From assembly GCA_029262475.1 (NCBI GenBank), contig JAJCZG010000122.1, forward strand, positions 31,789 through 95,788: a DNA stretch of 64,000 nucleotides. Direction: 5' to 3'. Source of the stretch: Deltaproteobacteria bacterium. Lineage in GTDB: Bacteria; Desulfobacterota; GWC2-55-46; JAJCZF01. Both the position numbers and the translations under genes were made by a program. Every line of letters begins with the position of its first letter. Positions within the stretch are counted from its first letter, which is position 1. The notes beneath the pieces are model-generated. The model did no database searches. It saw only the letters and a program-made list of their open reading frames with translations, and was not told the origin of the DNA. This document shows positions 47,854-51,591 of the stretch, piece by piece.

Positions 47854-48720
47854 ATGGATAGAAAAAAGCGTATTAGCGAACTCCGGGAGAGGGCCCTTGA
47901 GATAAGAAGGGATATCCTCCTTATGAATCACGCCGCAGGCTCAGGGCACCCCGGCGGTGCGCTCTCATCGGCCGATATTGTCGCGTGCCTCTTCTTCGAC
48001 GAGATGCGCCACGACCCGAAGCGCCCCATGCTCGACGACCGCGACAGGTTCGTCCTTTCAAAGGGACACTCCTGCCAGGTACTCTACGCCGCTCTTGCGG
48101 CCTCCGGCTATTTTTCAAAAGATGAGTACAAGGGGCTTCGCCGTATCAATTCGATGCTCCAGGGACACCCGGACAGGCTTAAAACTCCGGGTGTGGAATT
48201 TAACTCCGGCTCTCTGGCTCAGGGGTTTTCTGCTTCCCTCGGCATGGCGCTCGGCGCGAGATACCAGGGTAAGGAGATTCGCGTATATACCGTGCTTGGC
48301 GACGGCGAACTTAACGAAGGTCAATGCTGGGAGGCGTTCATGTTCGGTGCCCATTATAAACTTGATAATGTATTGGCAATAATAGACTATAATAAGCTAC
48401 AGAGCGACGATTATAACTCGAATATCATGGCCCTCGAACCCCTCGCAGAAAAACTTACCTCCTTCGGGTGGAATGTCCTGGAAATTAACGGCCACGATAT
48501 AGAGGAGATACTCGATGCCTTCAAGGAGGCCAGACATACCATAGGGGTCCCTTCCGTTATAGTAGCGCATACTGTAAAGGGCAAGGGTGTCTCTTTCATG
48601 GAAAATCACCCGAAATGGCACGGCAGCCTCGCCCCGAATGCCGAAGAGTTAAAGATTGCTCTAGGTGAACTAACCGCCGAGCTTACCGGGAAGAGCGGAG
48701 AGGGGGAAGAAGATGAATGA
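47854..48720 (+). CDS. Transketolase, N-terminal (ThDP-binding) subunit
   Basis: HPGGALSSADIVACLFF and GDGELNEGQCWEA (ThDP-binding motifs of split transketolases). Confidence 0.85.
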   Translation: MDRKKRISELRERALEIRRDILLMNHAAGSGHPGGALSSADIVACLFFDEMRHDPKRPMLDDRDRFVLSKGHSCQVLYAALAASGYFSKDEYKGLRRINSMLQGHPDRLKTPGVEFNSGSLAQGFSASLGMALGARYQGKEIRVYTVLGDGELNEGQCWEAFMFGAHYKLDNVLAIIDYNKLQSDDYNSNIMALEPLAEKLTSFGWNVLEINGHDIEEILDAFKEARHTIGVPSVIVAHTVKGKGVSFMENHPKWHGSLAPNAEELKIALGELTAELTGKSGEGEEDE

Positions 48721-49651
48721 CATTTCCCTTAGAGAGGCTTTTGGCAGAGCTCTTGTAAAGGCCGGTGAGGAGCGAGAGGATTTTGTCGTCTTCGACGCCG
48801 ACGTCGCGGGAGGCACCTGCACCAATTTCTTTCGTGAGGCCTTTCCTGACAGGTTCTTTCAGTGCGGAATAGCAGAGCAAAATATGTTCTCTCTCGCGGC
48901 AGGGTTCTCGACTATGGGAATTACGCCCGTAGTTACCGCCTACGGAGTATTCGCGGCAATGCGCGCGATAGAGCAGGCGAGAAATTCCATAGCATACCCG
49001 AACTTTAACGTAAAGATAGTGGCAAGCCATTTAGGTTTGGACACCGGCCCGGACGGCCCGACGCACCAGTCGATGGAGGATATCGCCATATACCGTTCGA
49101 TAGCGAATTTTACGGTTCTGGCCCCCGGAGACCCGGTTGAGATGCCCGGCGCGGTAAGCGCGATGCTAAATCACAAAGGCCCTCTCTATATGAGGACAGG
49201 CAGGAGCCCTGTGCCGTCGGTCCTGGGCGGGGACGAGAGATTTGAGATCGGTAAGGGTAAGATAGTAAGAGCGGGCACCGATGTAGCGATTATCGCTACC
49301 GGCGTTATGCTCCACAGGGCCTACGGAGCGGCCACCATATTAGGTGAAGAGGGGATAGACGCGATGGTGGTCAATATGAGCTCGATTAAGCCCATAGACA
49401 GGGCGCTTATAATCGAGTGTGCCGAAAAGACAGGTGCGGTTGTTACGGCAGAGGACCATAACAGGTTCGGCGGGCTCGGGTCGGCCGTGGCAGAGATTTT
49501 AGCCGAGACCCTTCCGACCCCGATGAGAATGGTGGCGATAGACGACACCTTCGCAGAATCAGGCGAGCCTGCTCTGCTCGCCGAAAAATACGGAATATCA
49601 ATAGAAGATATAAGGCGCATGGCCAAAGAGGTGATAGATGCAAAGGCTTAA
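48713..49651 (+). CDS. Transketolase, C-terminal subunit
   Basis: FQCGIAEQNMFSLAAGFS...GPTHQSMEDIAIYRSI (transketolase pyrimidine-binding / C-terminal domains). Confidence 0.85.
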   Translation: MNDISLREAFGRALVKAGEEREDFVVFDADVAGGTCTNFFREAFPDRFFQCGIAEQNMFSLAAGFSTMGITPVVTAYGVFAAMRAIEQARNSIAYPNFNVKIVASHLGLDTGPDGPTHQSMEDIAIYRSIANFTVLAPGDPVEMPGAVSAMLNHKGPLYMRTGRSPVPSVLGGDERFEIGKGKIVRAGTDVAIIATGVMLHRAYGAATILGEEGIDAMVVNMSSIKPIDRALIIECAEKTGAVVTAEDHNRFGGLGSAVAEILAETLPTPMRMVAIDDTFAESGEPALLAEKYGISIEDIRRMAKEVIDAKA

Positions 49652-50372
49652 AGGTAAAGTTGCAGTCGTAACGGGAGCGAGCCGGGGCATAGGGTCAGGT
49701 ATTGCCAGAGCTTTTGCCAAAGAAGGCGCGTTAGTTGCCGTCTGTTACAACGAGGGCGTTAAAGGTGCTGATGCCGTAGTAAGTGAAATAGAAGCGTTAG
49801 GCGTCAAGGCCATCTCTGTAAGTCTCCCGGTTGAAGACCGAGGCGCTATAAAAAAAGCATTTAAAGAGATTACTTTCGAGCTTGGTCAGATAGATATACT
49901 CGTAAATAACGCAGGCATTAATATCCCAAACGACTTCGATAAAATTACAGACGCCGACTGGGAGAGGGTTTTGGGCGTTAACCTCACCGGCCCTTTCAAG
50001 GTGACGCAGGTTGCACTGCCGCATTTCACCGACGGCGGTTCCATAATAAATATATCTTCGGTGAGCGGACAGTACGGTGGGCCGAGAACGACCCACTACT
50101 GCGTATCAAAGGCCGGGCTTATTGCGCTTACTCAAAACCTGGCGATATTTTGCGCTAAAAGAAATATCCGCGTAAACGCAATCTCCCCGGGGCTTATCGC
50201 TTCGGATATGGCAGGGGCCGCCACCGGCCTCGGACTGGAAGAAAAGATACTTTTAAAAAAGATGGGCGAATATAAGGACGTAGCAGGAGCGGCGGTCTTT
50301 CTCGCATCCGATGAGTCGTCATACATTACCGGCCATACGCTAAATGTAAACGGAGGGCTTTATATTGGCTAA
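49638..50372 (+). CDS. Short-chain dehydrogenase/reductase (FabG-like SDR)
   Basis: TGASRGIGSGIA cofactor motif. NNAG. YxxxK catalytic motif (YCVSK). Confidence 0.85.
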   Translation: MQRLKGKVAVVTGASRGIGSGIARAFAKEGALVAVCYNEGVKGADAVVSEIEALGVKAISVSLPVEDRGAIKKAFKEITFELGQIDILVNNAGINIPNDFDKITDADWERVLGVNLTGPFKVTQVALPHFTDGGSIINISSVSGQYGGPRTTHYCVSKAGLIALTQNLAIFCAKRNIRVNAISPGLIASDMAGAATGLGLEEKILLKKMGEYKDVAGAAVFLASDESSYITGHTLNVNGGLYIG

Positions 50373-51591
50373 GGTCCTCATAATAATCGGCGCCGGCATT
50401 GAACAGGTGAGGGCCTATGAGGTCGCTAAAGCGATGGGCCTTAAGGTCGTTGGTACGGATATAAACCCCGACGCACCGGCATTTGAGTACGCCGACGGAG
50501 CTATAATCGCTAGTACAAGGGACCACGGCGAGACACTAAAGGCCGTTATAAATTATTTTTTCGAGAATAAGGATGACAAGGTAACAGGCGTCATGACTAT
50601 CGCTAACGACGTGCCGATGACGGTCGCGACAGTCGCCGAACACTTCGACCTGCCGGGGCTTCTCACAGACTCGGCTATCATTGCGTCGGATAAATTCCTT
50701 ATGAAGGAGAGCTTTAAATTCGACGGTGTTAAGACTTCAAAATTTTCCGAGGTCTCTTGCCATATCGAAATAATTGACGCTGCTGAGGCGTGGGGCTGGC
50801 CACTTGTGATAAAGCCCGTTGACGGACGAGGGGCGAGGGGGGTTTTATTAATAGACGAGTCTACCGACCTTAAATGGGCTTACAACGAGAGCCTCTCGTT
50901 TTCGACCGTCAAGCGCGTCATGGTTGAGAGCTTTCTCTCCGGGCCGCAGATAAGCACCGAGTCGATGATGATCGGCGGCAAGTGTTATACCCCGGCATAT
51001 TCCGATAGGAATTACAGCCGCCTCGATGAATTTATCCCGTACATGATAGAGGACGGAGGCACTATGCCAGCCCTCCTCTCCGAGGAAGAGAGAAGAGCCA
51101 TAAACGCCCTCGTCGAGAGCGGCGCTCTTGCAATGGGCATAACCGACGGCATAGTAAAGGGCGACATAGTCTTAACCGAAAAGGGGCCTGCGATAATAGA
51201 GCTTGCCGCAAGGCTTAGCGGAGGCTACTTCGCAACAGACCAGATACCGCTATCAACCGGCGTTGACATGGTTAGTGCAGCGGTTAAATATGCCGTGGGT
51301 GAGCCGTTAAAACCGGAGGATTTCACGCCTCTTTACTCAAGGGGCGCAGCTATTCGGTTCTTCTTTCCTCCCGAGGGAGTAATTGATGAAATTAAGGGAG
51401 CTAGGGAGCTCTCATCCATGCCGGGCGTACGAAGATCATCACTCTACCGGGCCGAGGGAGACGAGCAGCCGCAGGTCCGCGCCCACCCGGACAGGGCCGG
51501 TTTTGTGATAGCCGACGGTGTGGACCGCGGGGAAGCGCTTCAACGGGTCGAAGCTGCAATTGACTCCGTCATCTTCAAGGTAAAGCGTTAG
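50365..51591 (+). CDS. ATP-grasp domain ligase
   Basis: ATP-grasp fold motifs (WPLVIKPVDGRGARGVLLI). Pre-ATP-grasp N-domain. Confidence 0.7.
   Translation: MAKVLIIIGAGIEQVRAYEVAKAMGLKVVGTDINPDAPAFEYADGAIIASTRDHGETLKAVINYFFENKDDKVTGVMTIANDVPMTVATVAEHFDLPGLLTDSAIIASDKFLMKESFKFDGVKTSKFSEVSCHIEIIDAAEAWGWPLVIKPVDGRGARGVLLIDESTDLKWAYNESLSFSTVKRVMVESFLSGPQISTESMMIGGKCYTPAYSDRNYSRLDEFIPYMIEDGGTMPALLSEEERRAINALVESGALAMGITDGIVKGDIVLTEKGPAIIELAARLSGGYFATDQIPLSTGVDMVSAAVKYAVGEPLKPEDFTPLYSRGAAIRFFFPPEGVIDEIKGARELSSMPGVRRSSLYRAEGDEQPQVRAHPDRAGFVIADGVDRGEALQRVEAAIDSVIFKVKR

Follow-up and report, generated by a model that had tools for sequence, protein, structure and literature searches.

Four overlapping genes, encoding a split transketolase, an SDR and an ATP-grasp ligase, lie within a flagellar Pse island of a Deltaproteobacteria bacterium (contig JAJCZG010000122.1 of assembly GCA_029262475.1), and the question they raise is what they contribute to the flagellin glycan in an island that lacks the acetyltransferase PseH. 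The first-pass annotation of the window (the whole 64,000-nucleotide stretch of DNA analysed) proposed a two-carbon glycolyl-type or an aminoacyl decoration. Its enzyme types and the absence of PseH are borne out by the present analysis; neither of the two decorations is. The cassette proves to be widespread and most likely builds a small sugar-like acid that is put on Pse instead of acetyl. The relevant features of the window are the following.

35544-37752, + strand: PseB and PseC (TIGR03589, TIGR03588), making a UDP-4-amino-4,6-dideoxy sugar with a free amine
38984-41926, + strand: NeuB-like nonulosonate synthase, cytidylyltransferase and PseG-like hydrolase (NeuB Pfam 3.9e-85; CTP_transf_3 9.2e-34)
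41833-47847, + strand: tailoring genes, in order SAM methyltransferase, sulfotransferase, SAM methyltransferase and two B12-binding radical SAM enzymes (Pfam)
47854-48720, + strand: split transketolase N-terminal (ThDP/PP-domain) subunit, TK-N (288 aa; Pfam Transketolase_N 3.4e-50)
48713-49651, + strand: split transketolase C-terminal (Pyr and C-domain) subunit, TK-C, with an altered head-group site (312 aa; Transket_pyr 2.5e-41, Transketolase_C 1.1e-33)
49638-50372, + strand: classical SDR ketoreductase, FabG-like (244 aa; adh_short_C2 1.1e-64)
50365-51591, + strand: ATP-grasp carboxylate-amine-type ligase, LAL-like, the proposed PseH replacement (408 aa; ATP-grasp domains, LAL_C2 2e-17)
51603-53636, + strand: GH57-like protein whose C-terminal domain resembles a mutarotase, found almost constantly alongside the ligase
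53633-55549, + strand: Maf-type flagellin nonulosonic-acid glycosyltransferase (MptE-like 1.7e-34, Maf_flag10_N; weak NCBIfam PseD match)
56429-57256, + strand: flagellin, the presumed acceptor (Flagellin_N 1.4e-36, Flagellin_C 5.3e-26)

The co-encoding of the split transketolase, the SDR and the ATP-grasp enzyme at 47854-51591 is confirmed by the ORFs and their Pfam domains; neighbouring ORFs overlap by 8, 14 and 8 nt, so that stop and start codons overlap along the whole TK-N, TK-C, SDR and ligase series. The SDR scores above the cut-off of the NCBIfam FabG subfamily NF009466 (228 bits; cut-off 222), contains the motifs TGASRGIG, NNAG, Ser and YxxxK, and has 3-oxoacyl-ACP reductases and a 3R-hydroxyacyl-CoA dehydrogenase as its closest solved structures. 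Judged by sequence, it is a complete FabG-type ketoreductase and would suit the role of keto reducer suggested for it earlier. The ligase, to which 4DIM and the L-amino-acid ligase BL00235 come closest among solved structures, is on similar grounds an ATP-grasp enzyme of the carboxylate-amine-ligase type, in keeping with the earlier suggestion that it ligates a carboxylate. With the L-amino-acid ligases (BL00235, BacD/YwfE; PDB 3VOT, 3VMM) it has in common the ATP-grasp fold and LAL_C2 and, presumably, the chemistry that joins a carboxylate to an amine via an acyl phosphate. With E values of 5e-17 to 4e-7 these matches are weak, and the substrates would differ, a hydroxy acid and an amino sugar being predicted for the window ligase as against two amino acids.

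Both transketolase subunits match the split transketolase of Carboxydothermus hydrogenoformans (TK-N, PDB 6YAK chain A, 9.5e-89; TK-C, PDB 6YAJ, 5.3e-92), with which the window enzyme shares the two-subunit architecture and the ThDP, metal and donor-binding residues. TK-N keeps the equivalents of human TKT His37, His77, His110 and His258 and the Mg ligands Asp and Asn, all of which are kept in 29-31 of 31 cluster orthologues, and in TK-C R7, E55, H106, D114 and R164 are conserved. One donor-binding transketolase His is Phe in DXS (PMC7661550). In the window enzyme all donor-binding His are present, including that one, which supports its assignment as a true ketol-transferring ThDP enzyme, as anticipated in the first-pass annotation. 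The catalytic residues of the cluster transketolases are intact, but the site for the substrate head group is altered. In the window TK-C, Gly34 takes the place of the phosphate-orienting Ser (human S345), and among the cluster orthologues the equivalent position is Gly in 30 of 32 and Ala in the other 2, the head-group motif RSHR becoming RGHR in 30 of the 32 enzymes. The C. hydrogenoformans enzyme, to which identity is about 49% (TK-C subunit only), retains RSHR and is found in a different genomic context. The TK-C motif reads DADVAGGT in the window and DADLSKST in 6YAJ; of the 150 nearest cluster representatives only 5, the three closest among them, carry AGGTG exactly. The phosphate site retains its Arg, His and Arg. 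Another split transketolase recruited to a special pathway, the 6-deoxy-6-sulfofructose transketolase SqwGH, handles a non-phosphate head group (PMC11659671); there the head-group serine is replaced by Ala rather than Gly, the histidine is changed as well (RAFDR), the pathway is catabolic and the substrates are sulfosugars.

The surrounding island resembles the canonical PseBCHGIF pathway of Campylobacter and Helicobacter, in that PseB (TIGR03589, 530.6 bits; cut-off 407.75) and PseC (TIGR03588, 472.5 bits; cut-off 423.5) are securely assigned, PseG-, PseI- and PseF-like counterparts are present, and the sugar is transferred to flagellin by Maf. The NeuB and cytidylyltransferase genes fall under the PseI and PseF cut-offs, and the PseG-like protein is weak (TIGR03590, 89 bits, under the cut-off of 153). 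The canonical pathway has PseH, an acetyl-CoA-dependent GNAT, whereas the window island does not, and an ATP-dependent ligase is proposed in its place. No GNAT or hexapeptide acetyltransferase was found in the island (35.5-56.4 kb), where one ORF of 207 aa (55589-56212) is without a family match and the others have non-acetyltransferase assignments. Outside the island the window has ten ORFs of GNAT size, all of them flagellar or chemotaxis proteins and none PseH, so that the absence first noted for the island holds, by the family assignments of the ORFs, for the whole window. PseH is likewise absent from the five related loci with Pfam tables (L001, L003, L085, L087 and L088), in which PseB, PseC and PseG-, PseI- and PseF-like genes are present.

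Comparative genomics, recommended in the first-pass annotation, reveals joint occurrence of the ThDP enzyme, SDR and ligase across loci. The ligase has at least 597 relatives in GTDB species genomes, with 40-60% identity across phyla, and the comparison covered 71 non-redundant loci from more than 15 phyla, each with 4 kb or more of upstream sequence. A split transketolase adjoins the ligase in 30 of the 71 loci, spread over many phyla, and 29 of these 30 have the SDR; a further ThDP enzyme type, AHAS (acetolactate synthase), is found with an SDR in 22, and only one of the 52 ThDP loci lacks an SDR. The exact order TK-C, SDR, ligase recurs in 21 independent loci and the order ALS, SDR, ligase in 15. 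In 42 of 74 loci the gene immediately upstream of the ligase encodes an SDR, SDR and ThDP enzyme are the commonest immediate neighbours of the ligase, and the GH57-like protein usually follows downstream. Co-location of split transketolase, SDR and ligase far exceeds chance expectation.

The enzyme that forms the carbon-carbon bond is exchangeable from one locus to another, and the SDR and ligase stay. Its slot is filled by a DXS-type enzyme in two Shewanella loci (L082, L088), by fructose-6-phosphate aldolase (FSA) in L045, and by a small split decarboxylase with a second NeuB-like enzyme in L047; the swapped enzymes all yield alpha-hydroxy-ketones (2-keto acids for the NeuB-like enzyme of L047) that the ketoreductase could reduce. 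The Shewanella DXS-type enzyme and the L045 aldolase exceed the NCBIfam cut-offs for housekeeping enzymes. Ligase identity is 0.478 and 0.473 within ThDP types and 0.451 between them, so that ligase and ThDP enzyme show no clear co-specialisation. Nor is the ligase strictly dependent on its partners, since in 12 of the 71 loci neither a ThDP enzyme nor an SDR accompanies it.

Genetically, this cassette is already known from Shewanella. The S. oneidensis MR-1 operon sfmABCDE (SO_3261-3265), mutants of which lose flagellin modification, adjoins Maf and lies near PseB/PseC, and no PseH was reported there (Bubendorfer et al. 2013, PMC3765264). The S. xiamenensis locus L088 comprises a short NeuB, the ThDP enzyme, the SDR, a 401-aa methyltransferase, the ATP-grasp enzyme, a GlfM-like 89-aa protein and Maf; in gene content it equals sfmABCDE together with SO_3259/3260 (PMC3765264; bioRxiv 2023.12.03.569772). 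On gene content and family membership the window cassette is of the sfm type: both have NeuB, a ThDP enzyme, a 3-oxoacyl-reductase-type SDR, a SAM methyltransferase, the ATP-grasp ligase (37-38% identity between the Shewanella and window proteins) and the GH57-like gene. The Shewanella ThDP enzyme is of the pyruvate type, bearing the annotation ilvB in MR-1 and being DXS-type in S. xiamenensis and S. electrodiphila, so the split transketolase of the window would be expected to leave a chain that ends in a hydroxylated carbon and not in a methyl group. Beyond sfm, the window has the sulfotransferase, the two B12-radical-SAM enzymes and a long NeuB (short in sfm). In the literature searched, no assays on enzymes of the cassette, sfm included, were found for any organism.

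Glycan data are available for only two related systems in the literature searched. The Shewanella flagellin glycan consists of mono-N-acetyl Pse, with the unbranched core formula C11H18N2O6, and C9H16O7 carrying 0-2 O-methyl groups; in S. oneidensis the outer portion of 236-264 Da comes off very readily in the ion source, and the core of 274 Da behaves like the bearer of a free basic, protonatable group (PMC3765264). Treponema denticola flagellin Pse is reported to bear a 2-methoxy-4,5,6-trihydroxyhexanoyl group (Kurniyati 2017, cited in PMC13439194), that is, Pse with one acetyl kept and an O-methylated polyhydroxy acyl chain. By this account, and as a chemical analogy only, the T. denticola glycan corresponds to the product type predicted for transketolase, SDR, methyltransferase and ligase, its terminal 4,5,6-triol being the outcome expected of ketol transfer followed by ketoreduction. 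Both groups as described, C9H16O7 and the methoxy-trihydroxyhexanoyl, are far larger than a two-carbon glycolyl group, which is accordingly unlikely.

On balance, the evidence tips modestly towards the four genes being a split-transketolase version of the sfm-type side-chain cassette that replaces PseH in the Pse pathway. PseB and PseC would make the UDP-4-amino-4,6-dideoxy sugar, its amine left unacetylated because no acetyltransferase is encoded. The transketolase would transfer its ThDP-bound dihydroxyethyl unit to an aldehyde with an unusual anionic head group, probably a carboxylate, giving an alpha-hydroxy-ketone, and the FabG-like SDR would reduce the new keto group to yield a polyhydroxy, sugar-acid-like carboxylic acid. 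The ATP-grasp enzyme would activate the carboxylate as an acyl phosphate and join it to the free amine (future N7), with the UDP-sugar, free Pse or CMP-Pse all possible as the stage of ligation. The chain may be tailored by the nearby methyltransferases, sulfotransferase and radical-SAM enzymes; the PseG-like protein, NeuB and cytidylyltransferase would complete CMP-Pse, with which Maf would then load flagellin. The direct basis is the gene identities, the catalytic residues, the conserved linkage, the absence of PseH from the window and the equivalence of gene content with sfm; from these we infer what the substrates are, in which order the steps run and that the linkage is an amide.

That carbon-carbon ligase and ketoreductase make a polyhydroxy acid, which the ATP-grasp enzyme joins to the amine that PseH would acetylate, is favoured by a similarly small measure. 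The retained Arg, His and Arg, together with the housekeeping-level scores of the DXS-type enzyme and the L045 aldolase, mean that the products could be sugar phosphates instead of acids, and the fact that no carboxylate-creating step was identified counts against the polyhydroxy-acid reading. The GH57-like partner has no place in the proposed model, which also counts against it.

The same cassette might serve another linkage, with the transketolase/SDR product placed on a Pse hydroxyl and the amine staying free; the bond would then be either an ester formed by the ATP-grasp enzyme or a glycosidic one in whose making the GH57-like protein assists. The in-source loss and the protonatable core of the S. 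oneidensis glycan would be explained by an ester or glycosidic link no less well than by an amide, C9H16O7 is arithmetically also the residue formula of a deoxy-nonose or methyl-octose, ester formation is established for ATP-grasp ligases of the microviridin type, and the GH57-like protein, with its GH57 fold and invariant Glu123 and Asp228/Glu230, is otherwise unexplained. Taken jointly these variants are nonetheless rather unlikely: the T. denticola glycan is named as an N-type hexanoyl nonulosonic acid, the ligase is most like carboxylate-amine ligases, nonulosonic acids with a free amine are rare, and retention of PseC where PseH is consistently missing points to use of the amine. An amino acid added by the ATP-grasp enzyme to the sugar amine or the Pse carboxylate, with transketolase and SDR otherwise employed, is improbable. 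It would agree with the LAL_C2 domain and the L-amino-acid ligases as closest solved relatives, with the 12 loci that lack ThDP enzyme and SDR, and with the existence of amino-acid-substituted nonulosonic acids such as a Clostridium botulinum Leg derivative; it conflicts with the ligase's preference for SDR and ThDP enzyme as neighbours and with the nitrogen-free Shewanella moiety (PMC3765264).

Two further explanations leave the ligase or the transketolase outside the pathway. Yersiniose biosynthesis also pairs a ThDP enzyme with a reductase: YerE and YerF, a ThDP carboligase followed by a ketoreductase, work in a sugar-modification cluster as in the window, but they act on a nucleotide-linked 4-keto sugar to form a branch, have no ligase and are not transketolases. 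Analogous addition of a two-carbon branch to the PseB 4-keto sugar, with the SDR reducing the branch ketone of the resulting branched-chain sugar and the ATP-grasp enzyme unrelated, finds its substrate in the PseB product and an AHAS/YerE-like ThDP enzyme in many loci. It is quite improbable, given that PseC, present wherever the locus flanks reach, consumes the same keto group, that transketolase and FSA take aldehyde and not ketone acceptors, that the Shewanella core is unbranched, and that the coupling of SDR and ligase is left without explanation. A housekeeping pentose-phosphate role, with the location in the island incidental, would be consistent with the identity to an active general split transketolase and the full set of catalytic residues. 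It is very hard to reconcile with a subfamily that occupies the same position in 30 loci of unrelated phyla, carries its own signature at the head-group serine, is replaced there by other carbon-carbon ligases and overlaps its neighbours at stop and start codons.

The first-pass annotation had passed over the GH57-like protein as a near-constant partner, the swapping of enzymes, the altered head-group site and the link to sfm. In the rest of the island, the tailoring block has a counterpart ahead of the transketolase in two syntenic loci (L085, L087), and the sub-block methyltransferase-sulfotransferase-methyltransferase-transketolase is seen again in L027, L075, L081 and L083. The window PseG-like protein aligns with the C-terminal half of a 585-aa cytidylyltransferase fusion of other loci.

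The split transketolase, SDR and ATP-grasp genes that the first-pass annotation had placed in the flagellin-sugar island are confirmed there by ORF positions and Pfam searches, and form a cassette of four genes:

47854-48720, + strand: TK-N, the first transketolase subunit (Pfam Transketolase_N), 288 aa
48713-49651, + strand: TK-C, the second transketolase subunit (Pfam Transket_pyr and Transketolase_C), 312 aa
49638-50372, + strand: SDR (Pfam adh_short/adh_short_C2), 244 aa
50365-51591, + strand: ATP-grasp ligase (Pfam ATP-grasp domains and LAL_C2, the L-amino-acid-ligase C-terminal domain), 408 aa

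Within the cassette, each start codon lies inside the end of the previous gene, with overlaps of 8-14 nt, and only 7 nt separate the preceding radical-SAM gene from the TK-N ORF. The operon structure of the cassette is read from this packing; a promoter and terminator scan of the window gave counts not above those of shuffled sequence. According to Pfam and NCBIfam, the gene order in this flagellar region starts with FlgL, FliW, PseB, PseC, a GFO/IDH/MocA oxidoreductase, a NeuB-like synthase, a cytidylyltransferase and a weakly PseG-like protein, continues with a SAM methyltransferase, a sulfotransferase, a second methyltransferase, two B12-binding radical-SAM proteins and the cassette, and then runs through a 677-aa GH57-like protein, the flagellin glycosyltransferase Maf, a 207-aa protein, flagellin, FlaG, FliD and FliS. 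PseB and PseC both exceed the NCBIfam equivalog cut-offs; homologues of PseG, PseI and PseF are present in the window with scores under theirs (89 vs 153, 297 vs 340 and 27 vs 206, respectively). No GNAT or hexapeptide acetyltransferase that could serve as PseH, the N-acetyltransferase acting on the amine made by PseC, was found among the island ORFs, one of which, encoding the 207-aa protein, matched no family, and ten GNAT-sized ORFs tested elsewhere in the window proved to be flagellar or chemotaxis proteins. The earlier statement that the island lacks PseH therefore holds within the window.

The neighborhood of the ligase was compared across genomes by scanning one genome per GTDB species, which yielded at least 597 relatives, the best 80 of which were taken with 10-kb flanks. 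The flanks were annotated from six-frame ORFs by BLASTP with the window proteins and the proteins of two reference loci, and the counts of gene content cover the 71 non-redundant loci in which the flank on the upstream side of the ligase measures 4 kb or more. The closest ligase among the best 80 loci is 61% identical to that of the window; two near relatives, L085 and L087 (ligase identity 84% and 79%), are completely syntenic with the window.

Genes upstream of the ligase in the 71 counted loci
Split transketolase, 47-65% identical to that of the window: 30 loci (29 with SDR)
Acetolactate-synthase (ALS)-type ThDP enzyme and SDR: 22 loci
SDR with neither ThDP type: 7 loci
No transketolase, ALS-type enzyme or SDR: 12 loci

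TK-C, SDR and ligase stand in exactly this order in 21 loci, and ALS, SDR and ligase in 15. Pfam and NCBIfam scans of the loci with neither transketolase nor ALS-type enzyme identified further variants of the slot for the chain builder, that is, the C-C-forming enzyme upstream of the SDR and ligase; another locus, L001, has additional genes:

L082 (Shewanella), 7437-9221: DXS-type enzyme, 503 bits, over the dxs cut-off
L045 (Desulfobulbaceae MAG), 7000-7737: fructose-6-phosphate aldolase (FSA), over its cut-off
L047 (betaproteobacterial MAG), 5663-9975: small split ThDP decarboxylase, second NeuB-like enzyme and two Fe-ADHs
L001, 5065-8200 and 18302-19819: second ATP-grasp protein, two unknown proteins and an AMP-binding enzyme

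The host genomes belong to Desulfobacterota, Alpha-, Beta- and Gammaproteobacteria, Bacteroidota, Acidobacteriota, Chloroflexota, Planctomycetota, Actinomycetota, Verrucomicrobiota and Patescibacteria, and include one Methanothrix MAG. Many of the loci have no flagellar genes in the 10-kb flanks, and therefore the cassette is not specific to flagellin. In the archaeal Methanothrix MAG (L034), Acidobacteriota (L037, L038), Solirubrobacterales (L051, L073, L074) and Chloroflexota (L030), the ligase and GH57-like genes are accompanied by genes for pseudaminic acid (Pse), and the 10-kb surroundings hold no flagellar genes. The C-terminal half of a 585-aa cytidylyltransferase in other loci is homologous to the PseG-like protein of the window, so that these loci appear to encode the functions of PseB, C, G, I and F, and not that of PseH. 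A ligase shares its ThDP type with its nearest neighbor in 74% of cases, compared with 38% by permutation; mean ligase identity being nearly equal within and between ThDP types, this agreement is most simply attributed to shared ancestry and is not taken as a sign of substrate co-adaptation.

The translated SDR contains the TGxxxGxG and NNAG motifs, the catalytic Ser and YxxxK (adh_short_C2, 1.1e-64); it scores 228 bits against NF009466 (cut-off 222) and stays under the FabG equivalog cut-off (227 vs 298), and its closest structures are beta-ketoacyl reductases. Judged by its genomic neighbors, the SDR would act on a free keto-acid or ketose rather than on acyl-ACP, the substrate of the true FabG. 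The ligase combines LAL_C2 with an ATP-grasp domain that has the ATP- and Mg-binding residues; K150, E188, E279 and R283, among others, are invariant or nearly so in the family alignment A1, and the family is 40-60% identical across phyla. Among solved structures, those of a structural-genomics ATP-grasp protein and of L-amino-acid ligases come closest, at modest E-values. Of 74 loci, 30 have the GH57-like gene directly downstream of the ligase; it lies within reach in 51 of 70, and Glu123 and Asp228/Glu230 are invariant in its products. In the window (51603-53636, +), as in L001, L003, L085 and L088, this most constant neighbor of the ligase encodes a protein of the 640-700 aa type with a galactose-mutarotase-like C-terminal domain.

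TK-N and TK-C match PDB 6YAK (~1e-88) and PDB 6YAJ (~5e-92), respectively, the structures of the split transketolase of Carboxydothermus hydrogenoformans, and share its architecture, the first chain carrying Transketolase_N and the second Transket_pyr and Transketolase_C. The window enzyme has the ThDP/metal motif (GDG...N), the Glu that activates the cofactor and the His residues that bind the donor, as do 29-31 of 31 N-subunit orthologues and all 32 C-subunit orthologues; the equivalents of human His37, His77, His110, His258, the Mg ligands, Asp424, Arg318, His416 and Arg474 are likewise found in the window and are practically invariant in the 31-32 orthologues from the clusters. In DXS, Phe replaces His110 (E. 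coli His100), a residue that separates transketolases from DXS (PMC7661550); since it is kept in the window, a dihydroxyethyl donor is expected rather than a pyruvate-derived one. Judged by these residues, the window enzyme is a genuine ketol-transfer enzyme.

The head-group site is altered. The canonical motif has been described (PMC11659671), and in place of its Arg-Ser-His-Arg set the window has RGHR, the Ser (human S345) being Gly34. This position, within a DAD[VI]AGGTG motif, is occupied by Gly in 30 of the 32 cluster TK-C orthologues and by Ala in the other two, and represents the one systematic difference of the cluster transketolases; Glu423 is also replaced, by Pro. Arg-Ser-Phe-His-Arg is the sequence in canonical transketolases, that of C. 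hydrogenoformans included, and Arg-Ala-Phe-Asp-Arg that in the sulfofructose transketolase, an enzyme acting on a sulfonate (PMC11659671). Of the 150 cluster representatives (50% identity, from 1.8 billion proteins) that lie nearest to TK-C, 60 carry RSHR, 22 RAHR and 12 RGHR, and five, the three closest included, carry the full AGGTG signature. By mechanism the enzyme is thus a transketolase, though probably not that of the pentose-phosphate pathway, and the altered site suggests an acceptor other than an ordinary sugar phosphate. Uronic acids are reported as substrates that transketolases can accept in biocatalysis (PMC8317047), and the subfamily with the changed head-group site is of interest for biocatalytic work on keto-uronic and sugar acids. 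A second active-site difference divides the subfamily: residue 118 of TK-C (gene 48713-49651), the equivalent of His473 of the E. coli enzyme, is His in the window and Ala in 20 of 32 cluster transketolases.

The gene content of the cassette region matches that of the flagellin-modification operon sfmABCDE of Shewanella oneidensis MR-1, which comprises a short NeuB, a ThDP enzyme, a 3-oxoacyl-reductase-type SDR, a SAM methyltransferase of ~400 aa and an ATP-grasp protein of ~410 aa beside Maf; this equivalence was judged by gene content and the published map, and the sequences compared were those of other Shewanella species. The proteins of S. baltica, S. xiamenensis and S. electrodiphila that match SfmE in size and context are members of the ligase family, and the ligase of the S. 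electrodiphila locus (L082, among the best 80) is 59-61% identical to the S. baltica and S. xiamenensis proteins. The S. xiamenensis locus (L088) encodes PseB, PseC, a PseF-PseG-type fusion, the GH57-like protein, two methyltransferases, a DXS-type enzyme, SDR, the ligase, a short NeuB, an 89-aa GlfM-like protein and Maf, in agreement with the map of MR-1 (PMC3765264; bioRxiv 2023.12.03.569772). An sfm-type combination, i.e. a ThDP enzyme, SDR and ligase with NeuB, PseB/PseC, a methyltransferase and Maf, was found in the window, in L082 and L088, and in 51 of the 71 loci. Transposon and deletion mutants of sfm in MR-1 lose flagellin modification and motility (PMC3765264); MR-1 is the only organism for which mutants show this need. 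The authors saw no clear PseH, G, I or F in MR-1 (PMC3765264), the glycan of which consists of a 274.12-Da mono-N-acetyl Pse (C11H18N2O6) and a C9H16O7 moiety that contains no nitrogen and bears 0-2 O-methyl groups (PMC3765264); by our arithmetic, C9H16O7 corresponds to a dideoxy-nononic acid minus water. As cited in PMC13439194, Treponema denticola flagellin bears a Pse-type sugar with a 2-methoxy-4,5,6-trihydroxyhexanoyl group; by mass its glycan resembles that of Shewanella in having one acetyl and one O-methylated polyhydroxy acyl chain, a tie to the cassette that is purely chemical. For the higher-carbon ulosonic acid of Magnetospirillum (SugarBase preprint), no link to the cassette was found.

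These observations lead us to lean slightly towards a model in which a C-C ligase and a ketoreductase make an acid and the ATP-grasp enzyme acylates an amine in the stead of PseH. The PseC-made amine would stay unacetylated and be acylated by the ligase in an ATP-dependent manner, with the acid supplied by the adjacent chain builder (the transketolase in the window) and the ketoreductase, and the methyl-, sulfo- and radical-SAM enzymes nearby would tailor the chain afterwards. The gene identities, catalytic residues, conserved linkage, local absence of PseH and sfm-identical gene content are directly established; we infer the substrates, the stage of ligation and the amide bond. A FabG-like ketoreductase would be a constant companion because all of the alternative builders (transketolase, AHAS-type, DXS-type, FSA) yield alpha-hydroxy-ketones. 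Transketolase action followed by reduction would produce a CHOH-CHOH-CH2OH terminus, as in the T. denticola chain, and a chain made by a pyruvate-type builder would end in a methyl group, in line with one of the two deoxy positions of the C9 moiety in Shewanella; a carboxylated aldehyde acceptor would also give the ligase its acid group. Held more tentatively, the loci may reflect a modular, phylum-spanning diversification of nonulosonic acids (NulOs), in which a fixed core of ligase and GH57-like protein replaces PseH, a swappable builder (split transketolase, AHAS-type, DXS-type, FSA, or NeuB-like enzyme plus decarboxylase) and ketoreductase set chain length and end group, and methyl-, sulfo- and radical-SAM enzymes decorate the product. 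If so, the AGGTG transketolases would represent a new specificity, for carboxylated rather than phosphorylated aldehydes.

Among the other explanations, linkage of the outer group as an ester or glycoside is unlikely overall, yet the loss of the Shewanella outer moiety in the MS source and protonation of the core like a free amine fit it at least as well as an amide, and it would offer a possible job for the GH57-like protein. The 12 of 71 loci that carry the ligase with no chain builder are a weak point of the acylation model. Moreover, because Arg/His/Arg is retained in the head-group site and the DXS-type and FSA variants score over their cut-offs, the products of these builders are possibly sugar phosphates rather than acids; a CDP-alditol (teichoic-acid-like) route from a ketose phosphate was rejected, the Shewanella moiety containing no phosphorus. 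An aminoacyl decoration, which the first-pass annotation had offered as an option, accords with the L-amino-acid-ligase domain, but the Shewanella moiety is nitrogen-free, which makes it quite improbable; the lack of extra nitrogen also argues against a joining of two L-amino acids by the ligase, the PDB matches of which are distant. Branching of a 4-keto sugar of the YerE/YerF type is still harder to sustain, given the constant presence of PseC and the unbranched formula of the Shewanella core. Finally, a housekeeping transketolase that merely happens to be located in the island is barely credible in view of the conserved position, the head-group signature and the enzyme swaps in the slot.

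Genetically, this type of cassette is already known from one organism, S. oneidensis, and literature searches on flagellin or NulO clusters that contain a transketolase or an ATP-grasp enzyme retrieved the Shewanella paper alone. No description was found in that literature of the split-transketolase version, the interchangeability of builders, the cross-phylum and non-flagellar breadth, the constant GH57-like partner or the head-group signature. Pse derivatives on flagella and surface layers influence motility, immune recognition and phage adsorption, and the origin of the Tannerella glyceroyl group has been called a major open challenge (PMC5378307). The locus and its relatives provide a concrete hypothesis on how N-acyl groups are installed on NulOs, testable with recombinant proteins, and turn two long-open glycan structures, one of them the Shewanella 236-Da group (since 2013), into testable enzymology; the swapped chain builders constitute a natural set for predicting glycan structure from sequence.

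Several other features of the island concern the sugar and its transfer. In the region 37749-40859 (+), the GFO/IDH/MocA oxidoreductase gene separates PseC from NeuB. This NeuB has a better score against NeuB_NnaB than against PseI, under both cut-offs, and the cytidylyltransferase seems to resemble KdsB more than PseF, so that the sugar finally made may differ from standard Pse. Upstream of the transketolase (41833-47847, +), the sulfotransferase between two SAM methyltransferases, together with the two B12-binding radical-SAM enzymes, suggests a sulfated and methylated flagellin glycan, and the methyltransferase-sulfotransferase-methyltransferase-transketolase block is seen again in Kordiimonas and other Alphaproteobacteria (L027, L075, L081, L083) and also in L085 and L087. 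The 207-aa protein encoded between Maf and flagellin (55589-56212, +) has homologues in L085 and L087 that match PF27299 (TP0873_N) and, weakly, DUF8042, a family also matched by the Shewanella 89-aa GlfM-like protein; it may be a GlfM-type Maf adaptor, though its direct BLAST match to the 89-aa protein is not significant (E 0.08). Beyond FliS and FliT, genes for flagellin and FlaG occur a second time (60371-61853, +), duplicating the flagellin-FlaG pair at 56429-57766.
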